Source: Vicinamibacterales bacterium (lineage in GTDB: Bacteria; Acidobacteriota; Vicinamibacteria; Vicinamibacterales; UBA8438). Taken from it: DNA of 64,000 bases. Below, in pieces: positions 35,345 through 59,483 of the stretch (position 1 is the first letter of the stretch; each line of letters begins with the position of its first letter). The notes under the pieces were generated by a model. The model had not been told where the DNA came from. It made no database searches and saw only the letters and a program-made list of their open reading frames with translations. Position numbers and translations under genes: made by a program. The DNA lies in contig OZ244900.1 of NCBI GenBank assembly GCA_965221595.1, forward strand, positions 1,190,687 through 1,254,686, in the 5' to 3' direction.

Positions 35345-36565
<1,221 letters not shown>

Positions 36566-36569
36566 GGCG

Positions 36570-37841
36570 TCACTCCGCGGCCAGGTAGGGGATGGTCTGC
36601 GGCCCCTCGGGCAGGGCGCACAGGCGCGCCGCCGGCCCGGCCCGATCGAGCTGCTCGCGCACGGTCGTCGCGACGTCGTCGACGGGGACGAGGTGCGCCG
36701 CACGCACCGCGTCGGGCGAGAGACCGTCGGCCTTGAGGAAGACCCGCGCGCGCTGCTGGATCTGCGCCTGGATCTGCACCTCCCACTGGTCGTGCCGGTT
36801 GTGGCCCGGCGCGCAGATCATCTCCAGCAGCGCCGCCGGCGAATCGCGTGCCGCGAGGATGTCGCCGTACTCGCCGTGCGCGGGCAGACCTTCCGCGCAC
36901 TCCGCCGCGCACACGATGGCGCCGCCCGGCTTGACGACCTGCGCTGCCGCCGAGAGCCCCTTGACGGTCTGGTACAGGTTCTGGTCGAGGGGATAGCCGC
37001 TGTTGGTGGTCACCACGACGTCGAACGGGGCCGCGAAGGCCTGCATGGCGCTCTGCTTCACGCGCGCGGCCAGGGTGCGGTGGACCGCGAAAATCTCGCC
37101 CGCGGCGACGCTCGTGATCCTCCGGTCGCGATTGATGGCGACATCCACGCTGAAGTGGACGCCGACGTGGGCGGCGATGCGCCGGATGGCCTCGTGGATG
37201 GGGTTGCCCTCGGTCACGCCCCACGTGGCGCGCGGGCTGGCGATCATCTCCGCGTCGTGGAGCCGCATGGTCGTCCGAAAGCCGGCCAGCCCGGGGGCCA
37301 CCAGCTTGGGACCGCCGCTGAAGCCGGCGAAGAAGTGCGGCTCGACGAAGCCGGTGGTGATGCGCACGTCGGCCTCCACCCAGAGCCGGTTGAGCCAGAC
37401 CGGCACGCGCGGCTCGACCTCGCCCAGGTAGACGAGATCCGCCTCGTCGAACGCACTGTGGTTCACCACGCGGTAGCGGTCGACGATGGGTGCGCCGAGC
37501 ATTTCGACCAGCTCGTCGCGATCATTGGCGCGGTGCGTGCCGGTGGCGATGAGGATGACGATGCGCTCGTCGGGCACGTGCGCCAGCTCGCCGAGCAGCA
37601 CCGGCAGCAGCGTGCGGCTGGGCATCGGCCGGGTGATGTCGCATACCGAGACGGCGACCGTCCGGCTGCTGTCGACCAGTGCGGCCAGCGGCGGCGAGCC
37701 CAGCGGCGCCCGCAGCGCCTGCCGGATGGCGGCGACCTCGTCCGGCAGGCCGGCGACGTAGGTGGGTTCGAGGACCGTGGTGCGGTCGTCGGGCAGGTCG
37801 ACCGGCAGCCGGCCCCGGCCGTACGCGAGCTGGACGTTCAC
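36570..37841 (-). CDS. LarA-like (DUF2088) nickel-pincer-dependent racemase/epimerase homologue
   Basis: 423 aa, GTG start. [40 protein letters not shown] and [18 protein letters not shown] match lactate-racemase-family blocks. Confidence 0.75.
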
Positions 37842-37860: not shown

Positions 37861-37889
37861 CTGAACCCCCACCGGCCGGCGGGGTTCAG
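37861..37889 (-). other. 9-bp perfect stem-loop overlapping the UGSC-A stop codon, in the 44-nt gap before the LarA-like start
   Basis: CTGAACCCC-(11 nt)-GGGGTTCAG. There is no U-tract after it on the mRNA strand, so it is not a classical terminator. Confidence 0.5.
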
Positions 37890-38449
37890 CCCGCGCCGCC
37901 TGTCAGCACGCGCCGGACGCCGGCCCCGGCCGCAACGGCGCGGGCGGCGATCTCATCGGCGCTCAGCGTGCTCAGCGGATGCGTGATGACGACCGGTTCG
38001 AGATCCTCCGCACCGAGCGCCGCCTGCTGGACGCGGGCCTCGCGCAGGAAGGCGTCCGTGACGATGACCGCCGTCGGGATCCCCCGCCCTTCCAGCGCGA
38101 CCGCGTCGTGCAGACTGCACGACGTGCAGGAGCCTCAATCGCCGATGGCCGTGACGACTGCGTCGGTCTCCGAGGCAATGCGGTCGAGCAGTTCGGACGA
38201 CGCCGGACGCGAGAAGCTCGACTTCGCGTAGACCCGGACGGCGTCGAACGTCAGGCCGGCTTGCAGCTCGCTGACGACCCGCCGCAGCAGCTTCGACGCG
38301 TTCCACTTCGTGTTGTCGAGGACGCCGAGGCGCAGGCCGTCCAGCGACGCCGGACGGGGTGCCAGGGCGCGCGGTTCGGCGCTGACCGTGCCCCGCGGGT
38401 CGTACACGATGCGTCCGTCCGGCAGGCGCCGCTCGCTCGCTCCCGGCAT
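37886..38449 (-). CDS. UGSC-motif selenoprotein A (in-frame TGA = Sec at 38135-38137)
   Basis: The track shows an ORF ending ...DAVVTAIGD at TGA 38135-38137. The same frame continues [55 protein letters not shown]... to TGA at 37886. ATG 38449 has GGAGG 7 nt upstream. The paralogue at 47746..48279 has its TGA at the identical aligned position, and a conserved hairpin begins 11 nt after the TGA. Confidence 0.75.
38105..38123 (-). promoter_or_regulatory. candidate bacterial SECIS hairpin for UGSC-A
   Basis: The mRNA reads UGA-11 nt-GUCGUGCA-GUC-UGCACGAC (8-bp stem, G/U-containing loop). The same architecture is present at the paralogous locus. Confidence 0.55.
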
Positions 38450-38552
38450 GGTCGTGCCTCCAGTCTGACGCAAGGCGGCGGCTCGGTGCAATGTCCGCGG
38501 TTTGCTGATACCCTGCCCCGGGGCGCCGGCCGGCGCGGGGGAGGGTTTCTCC

Positions 38553-39664
<1,112 letters not shown>

Positions 39665-39668
<4 letters not shown>

Positions 39669-39961
39669 TCCGCGTCGTGCTGCCGGCGCCGCTGTGCGCC
39701 CTGGCCCGCATCGAGCGCGAGGTGACGCTCCACATCCAGGGCGAGGTCACGCAGCGCGCCGTCATCGACGCCCTGGAGGCCGGCTACCCCGCACTGCGCG
39801 GCACCATCCGCGACTACGCGACGCAGCGCCGCCGCCCGTTCATCCGGTTCTTCGCCTGCGAGCAGGACCTGTCCCACGAGCAGCCCGACGCCCCCCTGCC
39901 GCCAGCCGTCGCCGCCGGCGTCGAGCCGTACCTCGTCGTTGGCGCAATGGCCGGCGGGTAG
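39665..39961 (+). CDS. MoaD/ThiS-like ubiquitin-fold protein ending in Gly-Gly
   Basis: 98 aa, [48 protein letters not shown]...[11 protein letters not shown]-stop. ATGA start/stop overlap with the BNR gene. Confidence 0.6.
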
Positions 39962-40150
39962 CACCGGGAACGGAGCCCGAGGCTCGTCTGCGGGTCACAG
40001 CTCGCAGGTGGTGTCCGTGCCGACGTTGTCGGCCCTCCCGCCAGAGCTGGACCCTCAAGGGTTGCGAATGCACGCAAACCAGCGGGACCGGGCCCAGGCA
40101 TGCACAAGCACACCGCCCGGACAGTTACCTCCGCGCTCGATGGTTCGCGT

Positions 40151-42127
40151 CTACCCGCCCCGTCGGCGCCACAGGACGCTGACGGCCCAGTCGACATCGA
40201 GCCGCTCGCCCCGCCCGGCCGGCGTCGCCGTGTGCGGGCCCAGCCGGATGCCCGCACGCCCGAGCCGCGCCGTCACCTTTGCCAGCGGTGCGCCGGTCAC
40301 GGTCGGCGACGCAGGCGCCTCCGGCAGCGGCTGGCCGTCCGGCCGGACGAAGTGCGCCTCGCCGTCGTCGCCGAGCGTGACCCCGAAGCCTTCTTCGTGC
40401 ACGGCGCGGTGGTGCCGCCGGCACAGGAGCACCAGGTTGTCGAGCGCCGTCGCCCCGCCGTGCGCCCAATGGCGGATGTGGTGACCATCGCAGCGAGTGG
40501 CGGTGCACCCGGGGAAGCGGCAGTGCCGGTCGCGGGCGGCCAGCGCGCGGCGTAGCGCCGGCGAGAGGGTGCGCGTCCGGCGGCCGACACTGAGGATCTG
40601 GCCGCCCGGCCCGTGGTGCAGGGTGACCTTGGCGGCGTCGCAGGCCAGCCGCCGGGCCGTCTCGGCGGAGACGCGGATGCCGCCGGCCTCGTCGAGTGCG
40701 GACTGGCCGCGGGTTGCGGCAGCAGGCGCGGCGGCGGGCGGCTCTGTTGCCGGCACGCCCGTGCATGGTATGGCGTGATGGGTTGTGGGCCTCGCCGTCG
40801 CCGGCTGCGGCGCGTCGAGGCACGCCGGGTTAAGGGTTTGCGTGGTGGCCGACGCTGTCCCCGCCCTGCCCAAGCGAAGTGCGGTGGGGCTGGACGCGGG
40901 CCTCGCCAGCGTTGGCGGCGCGGCGTCGGAGCGCAGCGGGGCAGCGGCTTGCCCGGCAGGCGAGGCCGTCTCGTCGGCGGCCTTGTCCGCGCCCGCGCTG
41001 CACCGCCTGTACGTTCCCGCGGGAACGTACGGCGCCGGTGCCGCAGCTCCGCCGTTCGTGGTCAATGCCGCCTCGTCTTCGTCCTGACCGTTGCGGTCGC
41101 TCGGACACGGCGACGTCCGAATATCGAGTTGGCCGCCTGCCCTGGCGCCCGCGTTGCCGGTACCTTCGCTCGAACGCGGCGGGGTCCGAGTATCGAGTCC
41201 GTCGCTTGCCGTGGTGCCCGTGTCGCCGGGTCCATCGCTCGGACATGGCTCCGTCGCGGCCGCCTCGGGCCGGTCGGCGTCGTCGGCAGTCAGGGTGTCG
41301 GCGTCCACGTGGACGACCGCCTGGTAGCGGTCACCGGCCGTGCCCTTGTCGAGGCCGCCGGCCAGCGCGCACTCGGCCACGGTGCCCAGCGCGTCGGCCC
41401 GCCGCTGCGAGACGCTCGGCGCCATGCCATCTGCGGTGTCCGCGGCGGCCCCGTCTGCATCCACCGGGCTCGGCGCCGCGTCCAGGGCGGCGTCGAGCGC
41501 CCGGCGCAGCACGGCGCCCACCTCGGGCGCCAGCCGGCCGCGGACCACGACCATCCCGTCGTCGTCCACCCAGGTGTCGAGGGCGCGCGAGTCGTGCCGC
41601 TGCCGGTCGTCTGCTGCCTCGGCTGCGCGGTCGACCTGCCGCCAGGAGCGGACGACCTGCTCGACGTGGGCTGCGGTGCCGGCGAGGGCGAGGTCGAGCA
41701 GGGCCTGCTCGGTCTCGGGGGTGGCCACGCGGGTGACGGCTCGTACCTTCGAGTAGGAGACCTGGCCGCGCTGCATGGCGGCGCTCAGGAGCGGCAGGTT
41801 GGCGAGGGCGCGCGCCACGCGGACGTGCTCGCGGGCCGGTCCGGGTGCGAGTCCGATGCGCCAGCTCAGCCAGTGGGCGCAGGAGGCGAAGCCTTCCCAG
41901 GCGGCACGCTCGTCGAACTGGCGGATGAGGACGAGCAGCTCGTAGGTGGCGGCCTGGATGCAGGCGGCGGCCTCGGCGATGCGGTTGCCGAGGGCTTCGT
42001 TGCTCGGCTCGGGCTCGTCGCCCGGCACGGGTGACAGAAGCGCCGGCCCGGGCGGGCTTGTCGCGGTGGCTACCGGGACCGGCAGGGGGGACGACGAGGT
42101 GGGAACGGGGCTGGCAGCAGCAGGCAT
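40151..42127 (-). CDS. DUF222-HNH endonuclease (13E12-repeat-family type selfish-element protein)
   Basis: The N-terminus (LGNRIAEAAACIQAATYELLVLIRQFDERAAWEGFASCAHWLSWRIGL) is the DUF222 pattern. C-terminal HNH: RHCRFPGCTATRCDGHHIRHWAHGGATALDNLVLLCRRHHRAVHE. A low-complexity tandem-repeat insert lies in between. Confidence 0.85.
   Translation of the reverse strand: MPAAASPVPTSSSPLPVPVATATSPPGPALLSPVPGDEPEPSNEALGNRIAEAAACIQAATYELLVLIRQFDERAAWEGFASCAHWLSWRIGLAPGPAREHVRVARALANLPLLSAAMQRGQVSYSKVRAVTRVATPETEQALLDLALAGTAAHVEQVVRSWRQVDRAAEAADDRQRHDSRALDTWVDDDGMVVVRGRLAPEVGAVLRRALDAALDAAPSPVDADGAAADTADGMAPSVSQRRADALGTVAECALAGGLDKGTAGDRYQAVVHVDADTLTADDADRPEAAATEPCPSDGPGDTGTTASDGLDTRTPPRSSEGTGNAGARAGGQLDIRTSPCPSDRNGQDEDEAALTTNGGAAAPAPYVPAGTYRRCSAGADKAADETASPAGQAAAPLRSDAAPPTLARPASSPTALRLGRAGTASATTQTLNPACLDAPQPATARPTTHHAIPCTGVPATEPPAAAPAAATRGQSALDEAGGIRVSAETARRLACDAAKVTLHHGPGGQILSVGRRTRTLSPALRRALAARDRHCRFPGCTATRCDGHHIRHWAHGGATALDNLVLLCRRHHRAVHEEGFGVTLGDDGEAHFVRPDGQPLPEAPASPTVTGAPLAKVTARLGRAGIRLGPHTATPAGRGERLDVDWAVSVLWRRRGG
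41097..41255 (-). repeat. 69-bp coding tandem repeat (about 2.3 units) inside the HNH gene
   Basis: tcgctcggacacggcgacgtccgaatatcgagt... / tcgctcgaacgcggcggggtccgagtatcgagt... / tcgctcggacatgg... They encode the PCPSD...LD(I/T)RT(S/P) units. Confidence 0.8.
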
Positions 42128-42515
42128 ACGTCCATTGTATGCCCCGTTTTCTTAACCGCTTGCACGGCTCCAGGACACCCGATCGGGCCGCGTGGCAGCG
42201 TCGCGCCCTCCCCGGCCGGCGAACGACCGCCAGCGCGCCGTCAGGGCGCTCGAAGGGGCATGTCTGACACGGGTTCGACCGCGGCGCGACGTGCTTCACG
42301 GAAGGCTGTCAAGCAAAAAATGCACGGACGACAGAAAAAGTGACGCCTGCCGTCCCTCCGGCAAGGCGGCATCCAGCATCCGCTGGGACGCGGTGCTCGA
42401 CCTGCCGCTTGATGGCCGGTGGGTAGGAACTGAAACGGAACTCGAGGCTCGTCCGAGCGTATGATGGTCATGCTAGCCCGAAGGGCCGCATTGTCTCCGA
42501 CTGAAGGAGCCGAAG

Positions 42516-44096
42516 ATGCACAGCTCGATTCGCGCAACTGCCGTTTGGTTCGCGGCGCTCAACGTCGCCGGCGCCGGACTGCTGGCACAGGACGGAGGGG
42601 CTACTCGATCCGAAACCGCTGAAGCGGCCGGAACAGAGCAAACGGAGCGCCCGGTCGAGGGGCGCCAAGCTGCCGGGCAGGATGACGTGGCGCGGGACGC
42701 CCGCCTCGACGAGGCTCGAGCCCGGCTCGCTCGGGCGTTGTTGTTGCGCCAGCAAGCCGAACAGGGTGACGCTGCCTCGCAGTTCACGCTTGGACTGCAG
42801 CACCTCACTGGCAACGGTGCCATTGAAGACACCGCGGAAGCCGTCCGCTGGTTCCGTCTGGCCGCCGAGCAAGGCTATGCGGAGGCGCAGGCTGCCCTTG
42901 GGGTCATGTACCTCGATGGTCGAGGAATTGCAGCAGACTCCGACGAAGCCCTGCATTGGTTGCGCCTCGCCGCCGAGCAAGGTGTCGCAACGGCGCAGAA
43001 CGCCGTCGGGTGGATGTACTTCGCCGGATCGGGTGTCCCAAGAGACGCTGCGGAAGCCGCGCGCTGGTACCGCCTCGCCGCTGACCAGGGCTCTGCCGAC
43101 GCGCAGTCGCACCTCGGAATGGCGTACAGCTCGGGGCACGGGGTGCCGCAGGACATCGGGGAGGCCGCGCGCTGGTACCGCCTCGCCGCTGAGCAAGGCC
43201 TCGCGGATGCGCAGTACGCCCTGGGCGACCGGTACTCCGAGGGCCGCGGCGTGCCACAAGACAAAGAGGAGGCTGTGCGCTGGTACCGCTTGGCGGCCGA
43301 ACAGGGTAATGCTGCGGCACAGTATTCCCTCGGACTGATGTACGCCAGCGGCCAGGGTCTCATCGAGGACGCTGCGGAAGCGGCACGCTGGTACCGCTTG
43401 GCGGCCGCGCAAGACGATGATCTCCTCCCGTCCTTTCCGTACGTATTCCTCGCCCGGTTCGGCCTCGCAGTTATGTACGCCAATGGACGTGGCGTCCTTG
43501 AGGACGTCACGGAAGCGCTGCGCTGGTACCGCTTGGCGGTCGCCGACGACCGGCACGAACTGGTTCCCTTTGGATTCTGGCCTGACAAGCTGAACGACAC
43601 TGCGGAGGCCGTGCGTTGGTACCGCTTCGCGGCCGAGCAAGGCCAAGCCTATGGGCAACTGCGCCTCGGGTACATGTACGCCAGAGGCGCTGAAGGTGTC
43701 CCGAGAGACGCCGCGGAAGCCGTGCGGTGGTACCGACTTGCTGCCGAGCAGGGTGACGCGGGGGCGCAGAATAATCTAGGGGCCATGTACGCCAGAGGTG
43801 ACGAAGGTGTTCTCAAGGACGCCGGGGAGGCCGTGCATTGGTACCGTTTGGCGGCCGAGCAGGGCCACGCGGCGGCGCAGTACAACCTCGGCGCCATGTA
43901 CGCCGACGGCTCGGGCGTCCTCAAGGACGCCGTGCTTGCGCATATGTGGTTCAATATCGCCGGCGCGAATGGGTGGGACGACGCACCGGACGCTCGGGAC
44001 AGATTGGAACGTGACATGGCCCTTGCGGACATCAGCCGCGCGACCGAACTAGCCCGAGCCTGCATGGCCTCGGACTACCGGGACTGCGCGCCGTAA
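42516..44096 (+). CDS. Sel1-repeat (SLR) protein, exported
   Basis: AAGGAG upstream and a signal peptide. About 11 units of xEAVRWYRLAAEQGxAxAQxxLGxMYxxGxGVxxD. Confidence 0.9.
   Translation: MHSSIRATAVWFAALNVAGAGLLAQDGGATRSETAEAAGTEQTERPVEGRQAAGQDDVARDARLDEARARLARALLLRQQAEQGDAASQFTLGLQHLTGNGAIEDTAEAVRWFRLAAEQGYAEAQAALGVMYLDGRGIAADSDEALHWLRLAAEQGVATAQNAVGWMYFAGSGVPRDAAEAARWYRLAADQGSADAQSHLGMAYSSGHGVPQDIGEAARWYRLAAEQGLADAQYALGDRYSEGRGVPQDKEEAVRWYRLAAEQGNAAAQYSLGLMYASGQGLIEDAAEAARWYRLAAAQDDDLLPSFPYVFLARFGLAVMYANGRGVLEDVTEALRWYRLAVADDRHELVPFGFWPDKLNDTAEAVRWYRFAAEQGQAYGQLRLGYMYARGAEGVPRDAAEAVRWYRLAAEQGDAGAQNNLGAMYARGDEGVLKDAGEAVHWYRLAAEQGHAAAQYNLGAMYADGSGVLKDAVLAHMWFNIAGANGWDDAPDARDRLERDMALADISRATELARACMASDYRDCAP
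42777..43980 (+). repeat. 108-bp-period Sel1 coding repeats
   Basis: The string gcgctggtaccgc(c/t)t(c/g)gc(c/g)gc recurs at about 108-bp spacing (for example near 43063, 43168, 43276, 43384). Two central units are degenerate. Confidence 0.75.
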
Positions 44097-44130: not shown

Positions 44131-45243
44131 TCACAGCTCGCACGTGCCGTCCGTGCACGCACTGTCTCCGCTCGCCGGAGGGCGGCCGTCGATGGCGCGG
44201 AGGACGGGGGACGTCATGTGGCCCCAGCCGGGCAGGAAGGCGGAGAAGCGGCCGGCTTCGCCGCCGGCGACGAAGAGGTGGATGTCGTCGGGGGCGGGGA
44301 CGACGGGGATGCGGGCGCCCGGCTCGCGGCGGTACCAGCGCGGGAGGTTGCGGTTGTAGACCTTGCCGTAGCGTCCGCCGAAGCTGACCGCGTCCCAGCG
44401 GTTGCCGGCATTCGACCAGAGGTAGCGGCGTACGTCCTGCCGCGTCCAGTGCTGCGCGGCGATGGTGGCCGCGTGCTCGGGGCCGAGGACGACAGCGCAC
44501 GAGCCGCTGCTGACGGCGTTGTTGTGGGCGATGGTGCTCATGGCCGAGGCGATGCTGTCGAGGATGCCCTGCGGGTCGTTGGCCACGTGGTTGGTGACGC
44601 TGTGCGGTCCCTCGGCTGCGATGCAGAACACGGTGCTGTCGTCGGGGCGGTAGCCCTGCTCGACGTGGTACGGCGCCCAGGGGCTGGCCTCCTCGTTCTC
44701 GGCGATGCAGAACGTGTACTTGCCGGGGTGGCCCAGCGTGCTCTTGTCGAGGTCCCCCGGCCAGGCGCCGCCGACGTTGAGCAGCACGAGACGGATCGCG
44801 CGGCCGATGGTGGCGTTGGCCCGGCAGCCGGAGCCGAAGACGTTGGCGCCGGCATTGAGCCCGAGTGCTCCCCGGACGGGGCCGTTCACCACCAGCAGCG
44901 GGGCGGCCATGTGGGTGGTGGCCTGCACGCCGTGCAGGTTGAAGTGGCTGCTCGTGAGCGCCAGCAGCGCGGCGCGGACGAGCGGTGCGTACTCCGGCCG
45001 GCAGCCGGCGAGCACCAGGTTGACCGCGAGCACCTCGCGCGTGAGGTTGCCCCAGCGCGGCGGGATGCGGGCCTCGAGGTGATCGGGGCGGCCGCCGAGC
45101 GCGTCGACCATCGCGGCGACCGACGCCGGCGTGGGCGGCACGACAGGCAGGCCGTCCGTCCAACCCTGCTCGAAGTAGTGCTCGATCAGGTCTGCGGGAT
45201 CGCCACGCGAGGCGCTGCCGGTGTCCGGGTCAGATGCGGGCAT
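44131..45243 (-). CDS. uncharacterised conserved protein ('GLPVVPPTP / AGCRPEY' family), paralogue of the C-terminal domain of 57834..59483
   Basis: 370 aa. Shares TDGLPVVPPTPA, LAGCRPEY, FNLHGVQATT, VNGPVR, GLNAGANVFG, RANATIGRA, NVGGAWPGDLDKSTLGHPGK and PYHVEQG blocks with the other copy. I recognise no named family. Confidence 0.65.
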   Translation of the reverse strand: MPASDPDTGSASRGDPADLIEHYFEQGWTDGLPVVPPTPASVAAMVDALGGRPDHLEARIPPRWGNLTREVLAVNLVLAGCRPEYAPLVRAALLALTSSHFNLHGVQATTHMAAPLLVVNGPVRGALGLNAGANVFGSGCRANATIGRAIRLVLLNVGGAWPGDLDKSTLGHPGKYTFCIAENEEASPWAPYHVEQGYRPDDSTVFCIAAEGPHSVTNHVANDPQGILDSIASAMSTIAHNNAVSSGSCAVVLGPEHAATIAAQHWTRQDVRRYLWSNAGNRWDAVSFGGRYGKVYNRNLPRWYRREPGARIPVVPAPDDIHLFVAGGEAGRFSAFLPGWGHMTSPVLRAIDGRPPASGDSACTDGTCEL

Positions 45244-45589
45244 CCTGCGTGACGCGGTGGATGGGGCCGAGCGCTTTCACGACTGCGGACGCGTTGGACC
45301 CCAGCAGGACCCCGTCGCCGAGGACCAGTGCGCCGGTGAAGCAGGAGCGGTTCGCAAAGCGCACCTGCACGGGGCCGACGTACGGGACGGAGACGTGCCG
45401 GCCCTCGGCCTTGGTCACTTCCCGCTTCTCCAGCTCGGACAGATCGAGCTGCACGGCCACATGCCGGGGGATGCACTGCGTCATCGCCCCCGTGTCGACG
45501 AGCGCCGTGACGCGCAGCGGGTTCAGCGCCGGGTCGCGTGGATTCGACAACGCGACGGTGGTGTGCAGCCGCTCACGCGCCGACATCAC
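45230..45589 (-). CDS. retropepsin-like (clan AA) aspartyl protease domain protein
   Basis: 119 aa with the LVDTGAM active-site motif and a later ALVLGDGVLLG flap/dimer-type block. Overlaps both neighbours by 14-17 nt. Confidence 0.6.
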   Translation of the reverse strand: MMSARERLHTTVALSNPRDPALNPLRVTALVDTGAMTQCIPRHVAVQLDLSELEKREVTKAEGRHVSVPYVGPVQVRFANRSCFTGALVLGDGVLLGSNASAVVKALGPIHRVTQDARI

Positions 45590-47681
45590 CGAATCCCTTG
45601 CCCTGCGCGGCGAGGCGCGCGAGGAGCGGTGCGGGCGCGAGCCGCTCGCCGTGCTCGTCGGCGAGGCGGCTCAGCGCCTCGTGGATGGTCCGCAGGCCCA
45701 CCCGGTCGGCCCAGAACATGGGCCCGCCGCGGTAGCGCGGGAAGCCGTAGCCGTGCATCCAGACGACATCGATGTCGCCGGCGCGCAGCGCGATGCCCTC
45801 GTCGAGGACCTTCGCGCCCTCGTTGACGAGCGGGTAGAGGCAGCGCGGGACGATCTCGTCGTCGCTGACCGCGCGGCGCTCGATGCCGGCCTCCGCCGCC
45901 GCGCTGACGATGAGCTCCTCGACGAGCGGGTCGGGGACCGGCGTGCGGCTGCCCGGCTCGTAGCGGTACCACCCGGCGCCGGTCTTCTGTCCGAAGCGCC
46001 CGCGCTCGCAGATGCGGTCCGCCACCGGGGAGTAGCGCAGATCGGCCGGCCGCGTGGCCGCCTGGCGCTGGCGGATGAACCAGCTGACGTCGTTGCCGGC
46101 CAGGTCCGACATCTGGAACGGTCCCATCGGCAGGCCGAACTCGTAGAGGACCCGGTCGACCTGCTGCGGCAGCGCTCCCTCCTCGAGGAGGAACTCCGCC
46201 TCGCGCAGGTAGGGCGCCAGCAGCCGGTTGCCGACGAAGCCGTCACAGACGCCGACGAGGACGCCCACCTTGCCGAGCCGCCTGGCGAGCTGCATGACCG
46301 TGGCGATGGTGCGCGCCGAGCTGCGCCGGCCGCGCACGTTCTCCATCAGCCGCATGACGTTGGCCGGGCTGAAGAAGTGCGTTCCGATCACCGCCTCGGG
46401 CCGCGCGGTGACTGCGGCGATCGCGTCGACGTCCAGCGTCGACGTGTTCGTGGCCAGCACCGCGTCGGGCTTGCACACGGCGTCGAGGCGGCGGAATACA
46501 TCCTGCTTCAGGTCCATCCGCTCGAAGACCGCCTCGACCACGATGTCGGCGCCGCGCACGTCCGCGTAGTCCGCGCTGCGCGCGATGCGCCCCAGCCGCG
46601 CGTCCATTTCCGCCTGCGCGAGCCGGCCCTTCGACACCGTGGCCGCGTAGTTCTGCGCGACGACGGCGAGCCCCTTGTCGAGCGCCTCGTCCGAGACGTC
46701 GACCACCGTCACCGGGATGCCGGCGTTGGCGAACGTCATGGCGATGCCGCCGCCCATCGTCCCGCAGCCGATGACCGCCGCGCGCTCGATGGGCAGCGCC
46801 GGCGTCTCGCGCGGAACGTCCGGGATCTTGGCGGCCTCGCGCTCCGCGAAGAAGGCGTGCCGCTGCGCCCGCGACTGGTCCGAGGTGCGCAGCCGCTCGA
46901 AGATGCGCCGCTCCGCGGCCATGCCCTCCCCGAACGGTAGCGACACGGCGTTCTCGACCGACTCGACGCAGGCGTACGGGGCGTCGAAGCCGCGCGCGCG
47001 CCGGGCCATCCTGCGGCGGTACGCGGCGAAGAGCCCGGGTTGTGCGCGGGCCTCGGCAACCCGCTCCACGAGCAGCGAGGCACGGCGCAGCGGCGCGCGC
47101 TCGCCGGCGAGCTGCCGGGCGCGCGCGACGGCGGCCGCCAGCAGGTCGCCGTCCACGACCTCGTCGACGATGCCCAGCGCCAGCGCCCGCTCGGCCGGCA
47201 GGAGCTGGCCGCCGACGATGACGTCGAGAGCTGCCTCCACGCCGATCAGCCGCGGCAGGCGCTGGGTGCCGCCCGCGCCCGGCACGATGCCCAGGGTCAC
47301 TTCCGGCAGGCCGAGCCGGGTGCCCGCCGCGGCGAAACGGACGTGGCAGGCCAGCGCCACCTCGAGCCCGCCGCCCGCGGCCACGCCGTGAATGGCCGCG
47401 ACCACCGGCTTGCGCGAGGCTTCCAGCTCGGCGAGCACCGCGGGCAGCGACGCCGCGCCGGGCGGCGGCGGGGCGTCGAACTCGCGGATGTCGGCGCCGG
47501 CGCAGAACAGGCGGCCGGCGCCTGCAACGACGAGGGCCGCCACGCCGTCGTCAGCCAGCGCCTCCATGACCCGGTCGCCCAGCGCGGCGCGCATGGCGAA
47601 GCTCAGGCCGTTGACCGGGGAGTTCGTCAGGCGCAGCAGCGCGACATCGTCATGGCGTTCCAACTCGACGGAGCCCGGCAT
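45573..47681 (-). CDS. bifunctional enoyl-CoA hydratase / 3-hydroxyacyl-CoA dehydrogenase (FadB/FadJ-like)
   Basis: 702 aa. N-terminal crotonase part (FCAGADIREF, AAIHGVAAGGGLEVALAC), then the 3HCDH Rossmann part (AAVIGCGTMGGGIAMTFA) and a C-terminal 3HCDH_C domain. Confidence 0.9.
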   Translation of the reverse strand: MPGSVELERHDDVALLRLTNSPVNGLSFAMRAALGDRVMEALADDGVAALVVAGAGRLFCAGADIREFDAPPPPGAASLPAVLAELEASRKPVVAAIHGVAAGGGLEVALACHVRFAAAGTRLGLPEVTLGIVPGAGGTQRLPRLIGVEAALDVIVGGQLLPAERALALGIVDEVVDGDLLAAAVARARQLAGERAPLRRASLLVERVAEARAQPGLFAAYRRRMARRARGFDAPYACVESVENAVSLPFGEGMAAERRIFERLRTSDQSRAQRHAFFAEREAAKIPDVPRETPALPIERAAVIGCGTMGGGIAMTFANAGIPVTVVDVSDEALDKGLAVVAQNYAATVSKGRLAQAEMDARLGRIARSADYADVRGADIVVEAVFERMDLKQDVFRRLDAVCKPDAVLATNTSTLDVDAIAAVTARPEAVIGTHFFSPANVMRLMENVRGRRSSARTIATVMQLARRLGKVGVLVGVCDGFVGNRLLAPYLREAEFLLEEGALPQQVDRVLYEFGLPMGPFQMSDLAGNDVSWFIRQRQAATRPADLRYSPVADRICERGRFGQKTGAGWYRYEPGSRTPVPDPLVEELIVSAAAEAGIERRAVSDDEIVPRCLYPLVNEGAKVLDEGIALRAGDIDVVWMHGYGFPRYRGGPMFWADRVGLRTIHEALSRLADEHGERLAPAPLLARLAAQGKGFGDVGA

Positions 47682-47745
47682 GAGCGCGCGTTGCCTCCGG
47701 TGCAGGTGGCGGCCCGCGGCGCTGGAAATGCGCCGCAGGGCCGGC

Positions 47746-48279
47746 TCAGTGGGTGATCGCGTCCAGGATCGCGTCGAGCGCCGCGCGGGCCTTCGCGCGC
47801 ATCTCTTCGTCCGTGGCGTCCTGAATCGGATGCGGCACGTAGACGGCGCGGCTGGCGACGCCCGGCATCCCGAGCGCCGCGGACTGCCGCTCGGCCGCGC
47901 CGACGAATTCCGACGAGGCCACCATCACGGTCGGGATGCCCTGCGCCTCGTAGTCGACCAGGTCGTGCACACTGCACGACGTGCACGACCCTCAATCGGC
48001 GAGCGCCTGGATGACGACCCGGCAGCGCTCGGCCACCTCCGCGCGCAGGTCGGGCGGCGCCGGCTTGGTGAAGGTCGGCTTGCGCAGGCGCACGATCTCG
48101 ACGCCGGGCAGCCGGCCGGCCAGCAGGCGCTCGAGCTCGTCGCAGAACACGTCGCCGCGCGGCTTCGAGATGTCGACGATCCCCAGCGGACCGCCGATCC
48201 CGCCCGCCCGCGCGGCAAGCGGCCTGCGGATTGGCTCGCGCTCGTCCGTCGGGTCGAGGATGACCATCGAGTCCGGCAT
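47746..48279 (-). CDS. UGSC-motif selenoprotein B (in-frame TGA = Sec at 47992-47994)
   Basis: The ORF 47992..48279 ends ...RVVIQALAD at TGA. The same frame continues GSCTSCSVHDLVDYEAQGIPTVMVASSEFVGAAERQSAALGMPG...HPIQD... to the stop at 47746 (the track lists that part as a separate ORF, 47746..47970). ATG 48279 has GGGGGA 6 nt upstream. Confidence 0.75.
47962..47980 (-). promoter_or_regulatory. candidate bacterial SECIS hairpin for UGSC-B
   Basis: The mRNA reads UGA-11 nt-GUCGUGCA-GUG-UGCACGAC. An alternative 9-bp stem is GUCGUGCAC/GUGCACGAC with a 10-nt loop. Confidence 0.55.
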
Positions 48280-48312
48280 GCTTCGTCCCCCGCCTGCTGG
48301 AAATCCGCGTCC

Positions 48313-49245
48313 CTACTGGAAGTCCGCGCCCGTCATCAACTTGAGGTTGCGGCCGTTCCCCTCGTGGCAGGCGTACTCGTACAGGATGTGATCGGCCGGC
48401 GCCCGTTTCAGCCCTTCGTAGCGCAGTGTCCAGGGCTGCGTGAATACGTTCGGATCCTCGATGGTGGCTTGGTAGTTGATCGTGTTCGCGTCCACCGGGA
48501 TGAAGCGCTCCACCACGCGCAGTGCGCCGCTGTGGAAGATGCCGTGCCCGCTGTTGATCGAACTGGCCGGCGCGCCCTCGGGCGGCGCCCCGTGCCCCAC
48601 GGGCCACGTATTGTCGGTGAAGTTCGTCACCTCCACCACCAGCGTGTCGCCCTCCCAGCGGCCCCGCGAGTCGCCCATCCCGAGCCGGATGCCCGCCGGC
48701 AGGTGCGGGCGCCCGTCGAGCGGGATGTACCGCGAGTGGTGGTTCCACTCGTAGAGGATGATGACCGCGCCCGGCACCTGCAGGATCTGGTAGGTGTTGT
48801 AGCCCACCGGCAGGTGTGCGCGCGGCAGCGCGGCGGGCAGGCACTTGACGCGCGGGTCGAGAAACGCCAGCTCGTCCTGCCGGTCCATGATCTCTTCGCG
48901 CCGTTCGGCGGCCCATTCCTGCAGGGGCACGCGGCCGTCGGGCGGGTCGATGATCATCGGCGTCCGCACGCGCTCGCGCGGGCCCGCCGGCGCCTCGCCG
49001 TCGGGGCGGAAGAAGCGCGTGAAGGTGTAGTTGTGGCCCGTGTACTGCGTGTCGCCCCACGGTTCCAGCCGCGGCGTCTCCAGCGGCTGCGACGCCCCCG
49101 GCAGGTAGTGCCCGCGCAGGTCGGGGTCGCCCCACGGCGTGCGGGGCGGCGTGTAGTCGCTCTCTTGCGCGGCGAGCGGGGCCGGGGACGCGAGGGTTGC
49201 GCACAGCGCCAGCGCGGCGAGCGGTACGAGCGGCTGTCTGGTCAC
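48313..49245 (-). CDS. conserved exported hypothetical protein, paralogue of 16793..17752
   Basis: Signal peptide MTRQPLVPLAALALCATLASPAPLAAQ. Shared blocks: TPWGDPDLRG, IIDPPDGRVPL, IPLDGRPH, GDSRGRWEGDTLVVEVTN, YEYACHEGN. Confidence 0.65.
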   Translation of the reverse strand: MTRQPLVPLAALALCATLASPAPLAAQESDYTPPRTPWGDPDLRGHYLPGASQPLETPRLEPWGDTQYTGHNYTFTRFFRPDGEAPAGPRERVRTPMIIDPPDGRVPLQEWAAERREEIMDRQDELAFLDPRVKCLPAALPRAHLPVGYNTYQILQVPGAVIILYEWNHHSRYIPLDGRPHLPAGIRLGMGDSRGRWEGDTLVVEVTNFTDNTWPVGHGAPPEGAPASSINSGHGIFHSGALRVVERFIPVDANTINYQATIEDPNVFTQPWTLRYEGLKRAPADHILYEYACHEGNGRNLKLMTGADFQ

Positions 49246-49484
49246 GGTCGGCCTCCTGCTGAACGGCAGCGTCAGCGTGGAGAATATGCCGCCGGCGGAT
49301 CCGCGTCAAACGGCCCTGCGCCGGCGCATGATACGCTGCAGGCGCGGATGCGTCGAGCGACCTGCCCACCTCCGTTCGGCCTGCTCCCGAGCCCGGGCGA
49401 GGCTTCGACCTGCCGGCGTCGCAGACCCACCGTAGCAGGGCCGCCTGCCGGCGCGAGACCATCGATCGCAGGCCGCCCGTAACC

Positions 49485-57833: not shown

Positions 57834-59483
57834 CTACCGTGCGACGACCCGCGTGACCGCCTTCGAACCCGCGCCGCCGGTGGCCCAGCCGCCGACGGCG
57901 GCCGAGAACTTGCCGGCGGTGCCGCCGGCCACCATGATCAGGATGTGCTCGGGGCGGGCGAACTTGGGGAACGGGCGGTCGAGAGCCGCCGGGGTCGGGC
58001 GGCCGGTTTCGTCCAGCCAGTCCTGCGGCAGCGCCCGCGGCACGGTGCCCTTCTGGCACTCGTCGTTGGGGAGCACGTCGCGCAGCGGGCGGGCGGTGAC
58101 TTCCTGGATGCGGGCGCGCAGGTCGTCCTTGCTGTAGCCGTCCCGTTCGAACGTGCGCGCGTGCTCGGGGGACACCACCAGCAGCGCCTGATCCATCCCG
58201 TGCAGCTTCACGTGAGCAATCGACTCCAGCGCCAGTCCCATCGTCGCGCCGAGCGACCGGGCGTTGCGCGATAGCTGGTCGCGGATGGCGCGCGGCGCCT
58301 CGGCGGCAAAGACGGTCACCGTGCTCTGCTCGCGGTCGAATCCGCGCTCGACGTGCAGCGGTTCCCAGCCGCTCAGTTCCTCCCGCTCCCCGATGCAGGC
58401 CCCGAGCTTGCCGGGCTGCCCCAGCGTCGACATGTCGACCTCGCCGGGGCGGCCGCCACCGACGTTGCGGACCAGGAGCTGCAGGGCGCGTCCGATCGTG
58501 GCGTTGGCGCGTGAGCCCTGGCCGAAGACGTTGCCGCCGCAGTTGAGGCCGATCTCGTTGCGGATGGGGCCGTTGACGATGATCAGCGGCCCGACGAAAT
58601 AGGTGGTCGCCAGCACGCCGTGCAGGTTGAACGCGTCGGTGCAGGCGGCCTCGACGGCCGCGATGACGACGGGCAGGTACTCGGGCCTGCAGCCGGCCAT
58701 CACGGCGCTGATGGCGACCTTCTCGACGGTGGCCGGGGCCAGATTGGGCGGGACGTGCGCGACCACGTCGGTGGCGGGCCGCGACGTGCCCTCCAGCATG
58801 CGGAGCACCCGCGCGGGGGTCGGCGGCACGACCGGCAGGCCGTCGGTCAGCCCGCGCTCGTCGAGGAACTCGAACTCGTCCAGGTCGGGGCCGGCCGGGA
58901 CGCGGACGCGGCGCGAAGCGAGGCGCTCCGTACCCCGCCGAACTGCCAGCCGCCGCGCAACGTCGGGATCGTGCACCCGTGATGCGCAGCCCGGGCGCTG
59001 TGCCGGCAACGATTCGCCGGCCAGCTCGACCGCGGGTGCCGGCGCACCGCAGCGCTTGGCGGCCTGTGCCACCAGCACCAGGAACTCCGCCTGCGACCAG
59101 CCCTCCATGCTCGCGAGCACCACGCCGTCCGGCGCCGTCAGCACCAGGGCCGGCACGGCGTCGAAGCCGTACTCCTCCGAAACGAGCAGCTCCGCGTCGA
59201 GCGCGCGGGGCAGCGAGAGTCCGTGGCGCTCTGCGAAGGCTGCGGTCAGCGCCGCGTCGTCCTGCGACACGCCCTGCACGCGCAGGCCGGCGGCGGACAG
59301 CGCGCTGTGAACCCGCTCGACGAGCGGGGCGGTCAGGTCGCAGGTCGCGCAGTCGTGCTTGAAAAAGAACAGCAGCGTCGCGGGCGCACCCGAGCGCTCG
59401 GGTCCGAACTCGCACGGATTGCCAGAGGCATCGCGCAGGGCGAACGCCGGGGCCTTCGTTCCGGCGGTGGGCAGCGTCGACAT
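57834..59483 (-). CDS. fusion protein: N-terminal thioredoxin-fold (AhpC/TSA-redoxin-like, CxxC) domain plus a C-terminal 'GLPVVPPTP / AGCRPEY' family domain
   Basis: Start at MSTLPTAGTKAPAFALRDASGNPCEF...LLFFFKHDCATCDL (redoxin with CATC). After a ~60-aa linker: LTDGLPVVPPTPARV, MAGCRPEY, FNLHGVLATT, VNGPIR, RANATIGRA, STLGQPGK (paralogue of 44131..45243). The 638-aa listed ORF extends upstream as a shadow. Confidence 0.7.
   Translation of the reverse strand: MSTLPTAGTKAPAFALRDASGNPCEFGPERSGAPATLLFFFKHDCATCDLTAPLVERVHSALSAAGLRVQGVSQDDAALTAAFAERHGLSLPRALDAELLVSEEYGFDAVPALVLTAPDGVVLASMEGWSQAEFLVLVAQAAKRCGAPAPAVELAGESLPAQRPGCASRVHDPDVARRLAVRRGTERLASRRVRVPAGPDLDEFEFLDERGLTDGLPVVPPTPARVLRMLEGTSRPATDVVAHVPPNLAPATVEKVAISAVMAGCRPEYLPVVIAAVEAACTDAFNLHGVLATTYFVGPLIIVNGPIRNEIGLNCGGNVFGQGSRANATIGRALQLLVRNVGGGRPGEVDMSTLGQPGKLGACIGEREELSGWEPLHVERGFDREQSTVTVFAAEAPRAIRDQLSRNARSLGATMGLALESIAHVKLHGMDQALLVVSPEHARTFERDGYSKDDLRARIQEVTARPLRDVLPNDECQKGTVPRALPQDWLDETGRPTPAALDRPFPKFARPEHILIMVAGGTAGKFSAAVGGWATGGAGSKAVTRVVAR

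Follow-up and report, generated by a model that had tools for sequence, protein, structure and literature searches.

Pairing of UGSC selenoproteins with an unannotated protein family at a Vicinamibacterales locus and across prokaryotes

Within a 64-kb stretch of a Vicinamibacterales genome (the window, meaning the whole of the DNA analysed), five closely spaced minus-strand genes include one for a selenoprotein of the UGSC family, raising the question of which genes belong with the selenoprotein and what reaction such a system might carry out. The family, named 'UGSC-containing protein' by Zhang and Gladyshev (PMC2398784), has been treated in the literature as standing alone, with no known function and a 'likely Trx-like fold' (PMC2398784, PMC13188914), and was still given as uncharacterised in 2026 (PMC13188914). 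A first-pass annotation had proposed that the five genes are an operon and possibly a new redox module, and that the selenoprotein among them (UGSC-B) and a 370-aa protein (p370) encoded at the end of the string could form a reductase acting on an acyl-CoA-derived or hydroxy/amino-acid substrate.

Composition and conservation of the five-gene string

The ORF list of the window returned the five genes with the coordinates and spacings that the annotation had given, namely, in gene order, a 33-nt gap, a 64-nt gap, a 17-nt overlap and a 14-nt overlap (Table 1). All five ORFs have GC3 of ~0.90–0.95, typical of real genes in this genome of 71% GC. They are probably co-transcribed, as spacing and the promoter and terminator scans fit a single unit: the only promoter-like sites of the string region lie just upstream of its first gene (two sigma-70-like matches vs. 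0.4 expected), and no minus-strand terminator-like site was found inside the string, giving weak but consistent support for co-transcription.

Table 1. Features of the window discussed in the text, in minus-strand order
Feature	Coordinates	Strand	Remarks
M20 peptidase/amidohydrolase	59509..60642	-	25 nt upstream of Trx-p370
Trx-p370	57834..59483	-	AhpC/TSA-Redoxin domain plus p370-family domain; candidate catalytic subunit, module 2
Two sigma-70-like promoter matches	49281..49356	-	just upstream of first gene of string; consensus matches only
310-aa exported hypothetical	48313..49245	-	signal-peptide-like N-terminus; no family match; 11/80 loci
UGSC-B selenoprotein	47746..48279	-	in-frame TGA 47992-47994; SECIS-like hairpin 47962-47980
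FadB/FadJ-like bifunctional enoyl-CoA hydratase / 3-hydroxyacyl-CoA dehydrogenase	45573..47681	-	702 aa; domain matches
Clan AA (DTG) aspartic-protease-like protein	45230..45589	-	119 aa; TIGR03698
p370	44131..45243	-	370 aa; GLPVVPPTP and AGCRPEY motifs; candidate catalytic subunit, module 1
Inserted block between p370 and UGSC-A	38502..44096	.	three genes
Sel1-repeat protein	42516-44096	+	within inserted block
DUF222-HNH endonuclease	40151-42127	-	within inserted block
BNR/Sortilin-repeat protein	38502-39668	+	within inserted block
UGSC-A selenoprotein	37886..38449	-	Sec TGA 38135-38137; SECIS-like hairpin 38105-38123
LarA-like (nickel-pincer lactate racemase family)	36570..37841	-	44 nt downstream of UGSC-A
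Acyl-CoA dehydrogenase	35345..36703	-	downstream of LarA-like gene

Conservation as a five-gene module was not borne out. Among 80 orthologous loci the complete order was kept by the 11 nearest Vicinamibacterales relatives alone. The exported protein, which matched no Pfam or NCBIfam family, occurs in 11 of the 80 loci, in the closest relatives alone, and the DTG protease gene lies between the FadB-like gene and p370, sporadically, in 11. In 35 of the 80 the FadB-like gene stands upstream of p370 at no more than 700 nt; it is missing from 28 loci whose upstream flank extends 5 kb or more, and outside Acidobacteria it was not found beside the p370/UGSC pair in the neighbourhoods examined. The string is a lineage-specific arrangement that places UGSC-B, a member of a second module, and the FadB-like gene upstream of the p370 of the first.

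The two enzyme-like products of the string were scored against family models. The 702-aa protein has the FadB/FadJ architecture (Pfam ECH_1, 4.8e-33; 3HCDH_N, 9.7e-62; 3HCDH, 1.9e-39) and falls under the equivalog cut-offs (499 vs. 869 bits for FadJ, 472 vs. 870 for FadB), with no FadA thiolase gene adjacent; as judged by these scores it is a bifunctional enzyme related to FadB/FadJ and not an equivalog member. The 119-aa protein passes the clan AA aspartic protease model TIGR03698 (63.2 bits, cut-off 57.35), carries the catalytic D-T/S-G motif as LVDTGAM, and scores just under the cut-offs of the Pfam retropepsin-like models. A second copy of the DTG protease gene follows UGSC-A in two loci (L003 and L004).

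Pairing of UGSC with the p370 family

A UGSC gene comes next after p370 in 79 of the 80 orthologous loci, and this gene is of the UGSC-A type, not UGSC-B (median gap 105 nt in relatives); UGSC-B orthologues come straight after Trx-p370 in relatives, at distances of 55 nt upwards. p370 has UGSC-A as its cognate partner, contrary to the proposed pairing with UGSC-B, and Trx-p370 has UGSC-B. The window holds two modules, p370/UGSC-A and Trx-p370/UGSC-B, both split by insertions that part each p370-type gene from its cognate UGSC. In some relatives a BNR or HNH gene occupies the same intergenic site between p370 and UGSC-A that holds the three-gene block here.

Within Vicinamibacterales the best-kept third gene of module 1 is the LarA-like gene (Pfam Lar_N 1.6e-60, LarA_C 3e-29), which comes after UGSC-A in 69 of 79 loci, within 300 nt in 43 of those. 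The mechanical ORF start of the acyl-CoA dehydrogenase overlaps the LarA-like gene, so its true start is probably further downstream. At module 2, the order of M20 gene then Trx-p370 recurs in relatives (L019, L023 and L044).

The pairing extends far beyond this genome, as the annotation's link between UGSC and the family with the GLPVVPPTP and AGCRPEY motifs would have it. When 80 phylogenetically diverse loci were inspected, UGSC was adjacent or fused to a p370-family gene in ~71 of the 77 evaluable, paired loci being found in Proteobacteria, Binatia, Rokubacteria, Dehalococcoidia, Acidimicrobiales, Bacillaceae and one haloarchaeon; in the reverse test, with UGSC genes located by DNA motif, p370 was alongside in 101 of 101 evaluable cases. 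Fusions are frequent, with the Pfam UGSC domain present in 38 of 107 p370-family representatives, and they occur in both domain orders; fusion ORFs break off exactly at the Sec codon, and full-length ORFs are seen for Cys forms, which have a CGSC motif. Some loci hold several tandem paralogous pairs (three each in L126 and L129). Cultured strains carry both forms, Sec in Robertmurraya sp. 2P01SA and Neobacillus bataviensis LMG 21833 and Cys in Natrialba asiatica DSM 12278. The durable unit is the p370 and UGSC pair, near-obligate genomic partners that are often a single polypeptide. The annotation's further claim that no described system has this composition needs qualifying, since UGSC joined to a conserved domain of unknown kind, 'Unknown_1', had been recorded by 2008 (PMC2398784); this domain may or may not be p370.

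Both UGSC genes of the window are true members of the family. Against PF24696 (cut-off 25) UGSC-B reaches 148.9 bits and against NF041046 (cut-off 125) 155.9, and the latter model was matched at E ≤ 1 by all 21 aligned UGSC sequences, UGSC-A among them. In both proteins the Sec codon sits in the motif D-U-G-S-C-T-S-C; the TGA is kept in 122 of 122 orthologues (79 of 79 for UGSC-A, 43 of 43 for UGSC-B) and is found in 68 of 74 diverse UGSC genes. The UGA is followed at 15–33 nt by a conserved 7-bp hairpin that shows one compensatory and one wobble change; no Rfam family reached threshold for it, and Sec-insertion machinery genes are not in the 64-kb window. Gene callers routinely split or truncate UGSC genes at the UGA.

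The p370 family and likeness to known systems

No Pfam or NCBIfam model matched p370. Its homologues number more than 7800 and the family comprises 5250 clusters at 50% identity. Its members share the motifs WTDGLPVVPPT, NxVxAGCxPEY, FGxGxRANATIGRA, GKYxxCIAENE, GPEHA and VAGGxGxxS. Gly80, Asn143, Arg148 and Glu182 are invariant, and Cys81 (>90% conserved) and Cys179 are near-invariant, each being lost in some subfamilies. The AF2 model of p370 (pLDDT 87) puts Cys81 in a loop between two helices. The natural UGSC-p370 fusion P0275 was modelled confidently by AF2 (pLDDT 93.7, pTM 0.94) as a single compact assembly, and its UGSC domain resembles flavodoxin-like folds; on this model UGSC is a flavodoxin-like domain with Sec in a U-x-x-C motif.

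Trx-p370 is 42% identical to p370, and, as the annotation had noticed, its p370-family domain is fused to a CxxC thioredoxin-fold domain: the N-terminal part matches AhpC-TSA (46.1 bits, cut-off 26) and Redoxin (37.9, cut-off 26.6), and its CATC motif is kept in the orthologue P0143. Some of its ~8000 homologues carry the annotation 'TlpA disulfide reductase family protein'. Fusions in the p370 family involve AhpC/TSA-Redoxin domains in four cases, NifU in one, FeThRed_B (the ferredoxin:thioredoxin reductase catalytic chain) in two and Pyr_redox_2 (thioredoxin-reductase-like) in one, and the last two kinds strengthen the link with thiol/selenol redox chemistry.

Profile searches detected no sequence relative of known function for p370. 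In Foldseek the model's best PDB fold matches were class I Fe-S fumarate hydratases (with E 1e-5, a probability of 0.99 and TM only ~0.25), together with the M. jannaschii alpha subunit and, weakly, the [4Fe-4S] cysteine desulfidase CyuA. The likeness to the class I fumarate hydratase / L-tartrate dehydratase alpha subunit is echoed by the di- and tricarboxylate-related gene context of many p370 members, but p370 has neither profile similarity to these hydro-lyases (hhalign probability <1% for both FumA and TtdA) nor their conserved three-cysteine cluster site.

The analogy with glycine and proline reductases, drawn by the annotation, gained from weak but recurrent matches of UGSC members to the GrdB, GrdF, GrdH and PrdB models. 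Component B of the Stickland reductases (GrdB/GrdF/GrdH with GrdE; PrdB with PrdA) resembles the UGSC/p370 pair in having a Sec subunit and a separate substrate-binding subunit, and its selenoprotein B shares with UGSC the Sec motif U-x-x-C(-x-x-C). We scored UGSC sequences against five selenoprotein B models (TIGR01917, TIGR01918, TIGR04483, NF040794 and NF040795): TIGR01917 was matched by 12 of 21 (best E 6e-6), and the GrdF, GrdH and PrdB models were also matched weakly, with the alignments on the Sec region. These matches are local (~60–70 residues around Sec), not full length, and scores are ~12–30 bits for UGSC sequences overall and 12–15 for UGSC-B, far under the cut-offs of 600–800, and UGSC is only ~175 residues long; by these scores the relation to GrdB/PrdB is distant similarity, not membership. 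In further contrast to Stickland systems, p370 shows no sequence relationship with GrdE, with PrdA or with the N-terminal region of GrdB (GrdE and PrdA models gave no match at E ≤ 1), the annotated neighbourhoods revealed no GrdE- or PrdA-type gene, and GrdA-, GrdC- and GrdD-like genes accompany no UGSC/p370 pair. Stickland reductases belong to fermenters, whereas the pair is hosted mostly by Acidobacteria, Proteobacteria, Chloroflexota and Rokubacteria of soil, freshwater and groundwater.

The fusions imply a thioredoxin-type electron supply for UGSC/p370, a likeness to glycine reductase, whose electrons come from thioredoxin-type systems. ArsC of the low-molecular-weight-phosphatase type offers another parallel: it runs a thioredoxin-recycled cysteine relay on a flavodoxin-like scaffold, and UGSC too would place a redox-active residue on a flavodoxin-like domain, with regeneration by thioredoxin implied by the fusions to thioredoxin, thioredoxin reductase and ferredoxin:thioredoxin reductase. 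UGSC has no sequence similarity to ArsC, however, and needs a separate 350-residue partner.

Candidate function

We consider it somewhat better than an even bet that the window carries two copies of a widespread thioredoxin-recycled two-component selenoenzyme acting on an organic-acid or acyl substrate. In such an enzyme p370 would bind a small carboxylate or acyl substrate through Asn143, Arg148, Glu182, Cys81 and Cys179, and the UGSC selenolate would attack the substrate or take up an oxidising equivalent. A selenenyl-sulfide would then arise with the cysteine of the UxxC motif or with a p370 cysteine, and a donor of the thioredoxin type, the fused Trx domain in the case of module 2, would reduce it again. 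Because Cys81 and Cys179 are each lost in some subfamilies, the selenol's cysteine partner is ambiguous. The genes around the pair hint at a step in organic-acid or hydroxy/enoyl-acyl catabolism: in Vicinamibacterales the pair's neighbours are LarA-like, FadB-like, ACAD and MaoC genes, and elsewhere TctC, TRAP and DASS transporters, MmgE/PrpD, CoA-transferase III and amidohydrolases. Beyond the two genes these neighbourhoods are heterogeneous, so no single substrate can be named; of the proposed reductase on an acyl-CoA-derived substrate, the UGSC/p370 link held and the acyl-CoA substrate was not established.

We think it unlikely that the five genes of the string serve one pathway, with UGSC-B and p370 reducing an acyl-CoA-derived intermediate from the FadB-like enzyme and the exported and DTG proteins as integral parts. 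The tight spacing on a single strand, the promoter-like sites only before the first gene, the survival of the entire string in the 11 closest relatives, the 35 loci with the FadB-like gene near p370 and two loci (L058 and L061) with UGSC-B directly upstream of p370 would all suit such a pathway, but it sits poorly with the confinement of the exported and DTG genes to 11 loci each, the 28 amply flanked loci and the pairs outside Acidobacteria that do without a FadB-like neighbour, and the direct Trx-p370 to UGSC-B and p370 to UGSC-A orders in relatives. Quite unlikely, too, is a general antioxidant or protein-thiol repair role, of the peroxiredoxin, methionine-sulfoxide-reductase or disulfide-isomerase kind, in place of a catabolic one. 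Orphan prokaryotic selenoproteins are mostly assumed to be redox-protective (PMC13188914), some p370 members are fused to AhpC/TSA-Redoxin domains, an HSP20 gene lies beside one locus and two operonic neighbours have DSBA domains. Against this, the pair is typically found inside substrate-inducible catabolic operons with transporters (TctC, DctM, DASS, ABC), regulators (LysR, GntR, MarR, PrpR) and metabolic enzymes, tandem paralogous pairs are the pattern of substrate-diversified enzymes, and the conserved Arg, Asn, Glu and Lys motifs of the 350-residue p370 suggest small-molecule binding.

The fold matches raise the idea that p370 is an Fe-S hydro-lyase akin to class I fumarate/tartrate dehydratases, with Cys81, Cys179 and the UGSC Sec ligating the cluster and UGSC serving as a cluster-binding or cluster-protecting subunit that does not redox-cycle. 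Two near-invariant p370 cysteines with one invariant UGSC Sec/Cys, the [4Fe-4S] fumarate hydratase, M. jannaschii and weak CyuA matches, and neighbours that handle di- and tricarboxylates accord with it; we nonetheless regard it as improbable, as TM-scores reach only ~0.25, Pfam Fumerase is unmatched and hhalign gave no support, whole subfamilies without Cys81 or Cys179 still keep UGSC, and the thioredoxin-fold, thioredoxin-reductase and FTR fusions point to disulfide exchange. The distant similarity of UGSC to the selenoprotein B family, whose partners GrdE and PrdA derive a pyruvoyl group from a cysteine residue, brings up p370 as a pyruvoyl proenzyme of that kind: p370 would cleave itself between the invariant Gly80 and the highly conserved Cys81, the resulting pyruvoyl group would bind an amine substrate, and the UGSC selenol would displace it in the manner of glycine and proline reductase, amines or amino acids being what the recurrent amidohydrolase and amidase neighbours could release. 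This strikes us as highly improbable, given that p370 matched neither the GrdE nor the PrdA model even at E ≤ 1, that no pyruvoyl group can form in subfamilies where residue 81 is Gly or Ala, and that the AF2 model has Cys81 in its interhelical loop, not at the strand junction where pyruvoyl enzymes are expected to self-cleave.

Returning to the thioredoxin-recycled two-component selenoenzyme, a protein family known as stand-alone is here the near-obligate partner of one unannotated family, and the assumption that UGSC has a Trx fold is corrected, by the AF2 model, to a flavodoxin-like one. With UGSC almost always beside or fused to one defined ~350-residue family, the orphan becomes a testable enzyme system: the pairing defines two proteins for co-expression, the thioredoxin-system fusions name the likely electron donor, and the natural Cys-type fusions can be expressed without Sec machinery. 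The p370 family, at its size, deserves a Pfam or NCBIfam model. More tentatively, and at somewhat less than even odds in our judgement, p370 and UGSC may constitute a new class of cofactor-free Sec-dependent reductase with selenoether/selenenyl-sulfide chemistry of the Stickland type outside fermenters, p370 being an undescribed catalytic fold with thousands of substrate-diverse subfamilies. If so, such chemistry would operate in soil, freshwater and groundwater bacteria that do not ferment and in some archaea, on organic-acid or amino-acid-derived substrates with specificity differing by p370 subfamily and with thioredoxin, thioredoxin reductase or ferredoxin:thioredoxin reductase as the donor, and a selenoprotein family that ranks among the most abundant orphans in aquatic metagenomes would have a function.

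Gene pairs and inserted genes in the window

The first-pass annotation had read five consecutive minus-strand genes as one operon, and ORF calls, translation and family scans confirmed all five with their spacings, namely, gaps of 33 and 64 nt followed by overlaps of 17 and 14 nt (see table). Third-position GC was very high in each of these ORFs, as in real genes of this genome (the window has 71% GC, and its nearest relatives are metagenome-assembled genomes of Vicinamibacterales, Acidobacteriota). UGSC-B, one of two small UGSC selenoproteins in the window, scored above cut-off for PF24696 and NF041046 in family scans; the FadB-like protein has an enoyl-CoA hydratase plus 3-hydroxyacyl-CoA dehydrogenase architecture that scored below the FadB/FadJ equivalog cut-offs; and the 119-aa protein belongs to the clan AA aspartic proteases, its DTG motif being present. 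A promoter/terminator scan placed promoter-like sites solely 5' of the first gene of the string and no minus-strand terminator-like site inside it. Divergent from the string is a di-/tricarboxylate transporter gene of the DASS family (Na_sulph_symp/CitMHS). The 370-aa protein (p370, a name also used here for its family) has a paralogue in the window, Trx-p370, with an N-terminal AhpC/TSA-Redoxin domain bearing CATC and a C-terminal domain 42% identical to p370.

Coordinates of features in the window and, where a locus handle is given, in fetched relatives
Feature	Position	Strand	Remarks
Acyl-CoA dehydrogenase ORF	35345-36703	-	mechanical start
LarA-like	36570-37841	-	44 nt 3' of UGSC-A
UGSC-A	37886-38449	-	tblastn; Sec codon 38135-38137
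Conserved segment at UGA, UGSC-A	38105-38137		
Block between p370 and UGSC-A	38502-44096		
p370, 370 aa	44131-45243	-	ORF call; no family found in family scans
DTG protease-like, 119 aa	45230-45589	-	ORF call; TIGR03698
FadB-like, 702 aa	45573-47681	-	ORF call; family scans
UGSC-B	47746-48279	-	ORF call as 47992-48279 + 47746-47970; single-frame translation across TGA
Conserved segment at UGA, UGSC-B	47962-47994		
Exported protein, 310 aa	48313-49245	-	ORF call; no family found in family scans
DASS-family transporter	49485-50927	+	
SMC_N/AAA_23/AAA_21 ATPase, 831 aa	55271-57766	-	directly 3' of Trx-p370
Trx-p370	57834-59483	-	
M20 peptidase/amidohydrolase	59509-60642	-	25 nt 5' of Trx-p370
Extra DTG protease-like copy, L003	14870-15130		3' of UGSC-A
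Extra DTG protease-like copy, L004	12559-12819		3' of UGSC-A
DUF6282, L155	7935-8831		directly 3' of UGSC-p370 fusion
DUF6282, L124	6015-6845		directly 3' of UGSC-p370 fusion

We located relatives of all window genes in each of 80 genomic loci encoding p370 orthologues. An orthologue of UGSC-A, the second UGSC gene of the window, lay 3' of p370 on the same strand in 79 of the 80 (median gap 105 nt), including contigs of Chloroflexota, Dehalococcoidia, Tectomicrobia and Desulfobacteraceae with no other genes in common with the window, while UGSC-B is found in relatives 3' of Trx-p370, in some genomes at a gap of just 55-105 nt. Judged from this gene order, the ancestral units are p370→UGSC-A and Trx-p370→UGSC-B, both of them split in the window, the former by a 5.6-kb block and the latter by ~9.5 kb; the earlier pairing of p370 with UGSC-B was thus mistaken. 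Nor did the five genes hold up as a functional unit, since members of the string other than the p370/UGSC link proved much less conserved across the 80 loci: the FadB-like gene was within 700 nt 5' of p370 in 35 and absent from 28 despite at least 5 kb of 5' flank, and the DTG protease and exported-protein genes were each present in 11. The best-conserved third gene is instead the LarA-like gene (nickel-pincer cofactor racemase family), which lies outside the interval first described and occurs 3' of UGSC-A in 69 of 79 loci, 43 of them within 300 nt. The acyl-CoA dehydrogenase ORF overlaps it by 134 nt, its start probably being called too far upstream.

The block between p370 and UGSC-A holds unrelated BNR/Sortilin-repeat, DUF222-HNH endonuclease and Sel1-repeat genes. 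The same intervening site is occupied by a BNR gene in relatives L007, L009 and L034 and by an HNH gene in L052, and a BNR gene sits just 3' of UGSC-A in L017, L018, L021, L024 and L026; on this pattern of gene content, the site looks like a recurrent insertion hotspot beside the selenoprotein gene. The 831-aa ATPase occupies the place where relatives have UGSC-B, and one of the domain families that it matches is AAA_21, 'putative AbiEii toxin'; a defence or mobile gene may have been inserted here. The DTG protease-like gene is sporadic, with a second, 55-60% identical copy right after UGSC-A in some relatives, and in its behaviour resembles a mobile or accessory gene that has entered the neighbourhood more than once.

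Breadth of the UGSC-p370 partnership

A word-indexed search returned more than 7800 p370 homologues, the top ones 74-88% identical across phyla and all annotated 'hypothetical', and exhaustive search resolved the family into 5250 clusters at 50% identity. Three UGSC-containing architectures were seen among the best 150 representatives: proteins of ~460 aa with p370 ahead of the N-terminal half of UGSC, ending '...AIGD' at the residue preceding Sec, and therefore products of ORFs cut at the UGA; proteins of ~410-450 aa with the post-Sec half of UGSC ahead of p370; and full-length UGSC-p370 fusions of ~530-570 aa with CGSC. Gene callers stop at the UGA, leaving UGSC as two ORFs or the fusions truncated (L084-L086, L089-L091, L094 and L095), so that public protein sets contain many artefactual fragments of ~95, ~75, ~415 and ~460 aa. 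By Pfam scan of 107 representatives, p370 was fused to UGSC in 38, to AhpC/TSA-Redoxin in four, to the ferredoxin:thioredoxin reductase catalytic chain (FeThRed_B) in two, and to a thioredoxin-reductase-like flavoprotein (Pyr_redox_2) and a NifU-like domain in one each.

The co-occurrence test called for by the first-pass annotation was positive in both directions. Among 80 loci chosen for taxonomic diversity, 77 were evaluable and ~71 of these had a UGSC domain directly beside or fused to p370, spanning Beta-, Gamma-, Alpha- and Deltaproteobacteria, Binatia, Rokubacteria/Methylomirabilota, Dehalococcoidia, Acidimicrobiales, Bacillaceae and one haloarchaeon, with two or three tandem pairs at several loci. 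One contig labelled 'Candidatus Nitrosocosmicus' (DASRWT010000003.1; L170/L180) is almost certainly mis-binned; its fetched stretch is 73% GC, and the Sec UGSC-p370 pair on it is of bacterial type. For the reverse test, genomes were scanned independently of p370 for DNA encoding D-U-G-S-C-T-S-W. All 123 matches were UGSC genes, and each of the 101 with enough flank to evaluate had p370 nearby (95 directly 3', five directly 5', and one on the opposite strand). Because the forward and reverse tests agree, we consider the partnership essentially obligate both ways.

Selenocysteine, folds and distant relatives

UGSC-B has 177 residues with a single in-frame TGA, within ALAD-U-GSCTSCSVHD. This codon is kept in 79 of 79 UGSC-A and 43 of 43 UGSC-B orthologues, and in 68 of 74 UGSC genes of a diverse set, the remainder having Cys. 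Scanned against Rfam, the window matched no RNA family at gathering thresholds, SECIS families included, and contained no tRNA genes, so SECIS was assessed by folding and alignment. The ~30 nt 3' of the UGA (ACGTCGTGCAGTNTGCACGAC) are near-identical between UGSC-A and UGSC-B and across phyla (L001-L080), synonymous sites included, a strong constraint at the RNA level; a 7-bp hairpin 15-33 nt 3' of the UGA, with one compensatory and one wobble change, has the position expected of a bacterial SECIS.

An alignment of 83 sequences, 45 full-length fusions among them, was used to model P0275, a UGSC-p370 fusion that is naturally of the Cys type. With pLDDT 93.7 and pTM 0.94 over 561 residues, the model indicates one confidently packed assembly. 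By Foldseek its UGSC domain matched only generic flavodoxin-like three-layer folds, a prediction that contradicts the 'likely Trx-like fold' assumed in a 2008 paper (PMC2398784). Comparison of UGSC with PDB chains, as single sequence and as profile, gave chance matches only. Twelve of 21 diverse UGSC proteins matched the glycine reductase selenoprotein B model (best E 6e-6), and several also matched the GrdF, GrdH, PrdB and general selenoprotein B models, with UGSC-B residues 93-162 aligning to GrdF model positions 347-409. Because these matches recur around the Sec region, UGSC is distantly related to the part of Stickland selenoprotein B that carries Sec, although the likeness is local to that region and the scores fall far below membership thresholds.

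For p370 itself, neither Pfam nor NCBIfam gave a family at E ≤ 1 in sets of 107 and 29 diverse members, and its sequence had only chance matches to PDB chains (E ~0.9). The best PDB matches of its AlphaFold2 model (pLDDT 87, pTM 0.89) by Foldseek were class I [4Fe-4S] fumarate hydratases and the M. jannaschii alpha subunit, with E ~1e-5 and probability 0.99 but TM only ~0.25. Homology to fumarase was rejected, since E. coli FumA and TtdA, compared with the p370 profile by hhalign, gave probability <1%; given the low TM and the null hhalign result, we keep the likeness as a weak lead, a hydro-lyase-like resemblance between folds as modelled. Gly80, Asn143, Arg148 and Glu182 are invariant in the 107 diverse members; Cys81 and Cys179 are >90% conserved, each being replaced in some subfamilies that retain UGSC.

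Gene context and proposed function

In Vicinamibacterales the pair is found with LarA-like, acyl-CoA dehydrogenase, MaoC-dehydratase and FadB-like genes. Outside that order, the genes directly alongside on the same strand vary: TctC receptors (8 of 52 operonic neighbours), DUF6282 (PF19799; 4 of 52), MmgE/PrpD and luciferase-like oxidoreductases (3 of 52 each), as well as family III CoA-transferases, amidohydrolases/amidases, and DctM, DASS and ABC transporters, with LysR, GntR or MarR regulators at some loci. On an unrelated metagenomic contig (L087), a DASS-family transporter is directly 3' of the UGSC-p370 fusion. The cultured Robertmurraya sp. 2P01SA has the order PrpR-type activator, enoyl-CoA hydratase, MmgE/PrpD, UGSC-p370 fusion (Sec), DctM, DUF6282, NAD-binding protein and Ldh_2 dehydrogenase. 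Neobacillus bataviensis has a UGSC-p370 gene as well, and Cys-type fusions occur in Natrialba asiatica and Sphingomonas. DUF6282 lies directly 3' of the fusion in distant lineages, Bacillaceae and a haloarchaeon among them, and may act as an additional component or as the pathway's next enzyme. The M20 peptidase/amidohydrolase gene of the window keeps its order with Trx-p370 in L019, L023 and L044, and in unrelated bacteria too the module is flanked by genes for an amidase, an Amidohydro_2 protein or a hydantoinase; such neighbours hint at substrates derived from amides or amino acids. Across diverse loci, an enrichment analysis of operonic neighbours yielded no single consistent third partner, and we therefore rejected naming any one substrate.

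This context marks the system as one for organic-acid catabolism that is inducible by substrate and has many subfamilies of differing substrate specificity, and it does not look like that of a general stress system. The best-supported model for p370/UGSC is a thioredoxin-recycled selenol/thiol reductase, because the Sec partner is obligate, UGSC resembles selenoprotein B, a UxxC motif is present, and disulfide-reductase modules of three kinds have been fused independently; p370 would bind substrate, and the UGSC selenolate would carry out a redox or nucleophilic step. The analysis establishes the partnership, the fusions, the Sec coding and the folds as modelled, and we infer the redox cycle, its electron donor and, above all, the substrate. 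Of the first-pass interpretation, then, the five-gene unit and the UGSC-B pairing fell away, but the UGSC-p370 link stands, as do the proposed tie to thiol/selenol redox chemistry, in view of the independent fusions, and the analogy to Stickland glycine and proline reductases, in view of the selenoprotein B matches.

UGSC is already a known family in Pfam and NCBIfam (PMC1976440, PMC2398784), still uncharacterised in reviews of 2022 and 2026 (the latter PMC13188914). A 'UGSC/Unknown_1' fusion appears in the 2008 GOS paper (PMC2398784), and 'Unknown_1' is probably the p370 family. We found no literature description of p370 as a family, of its obligate pairing with UGSC, of its Trx, TrxR and FTR fusions, or of a relation of UGSC to selenoprotein B. 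We rate the system among the selenoprotein-B-type, thioredoxin-linked reductases, with p370 as a candidate catalytic subunit family new to curated libraries.
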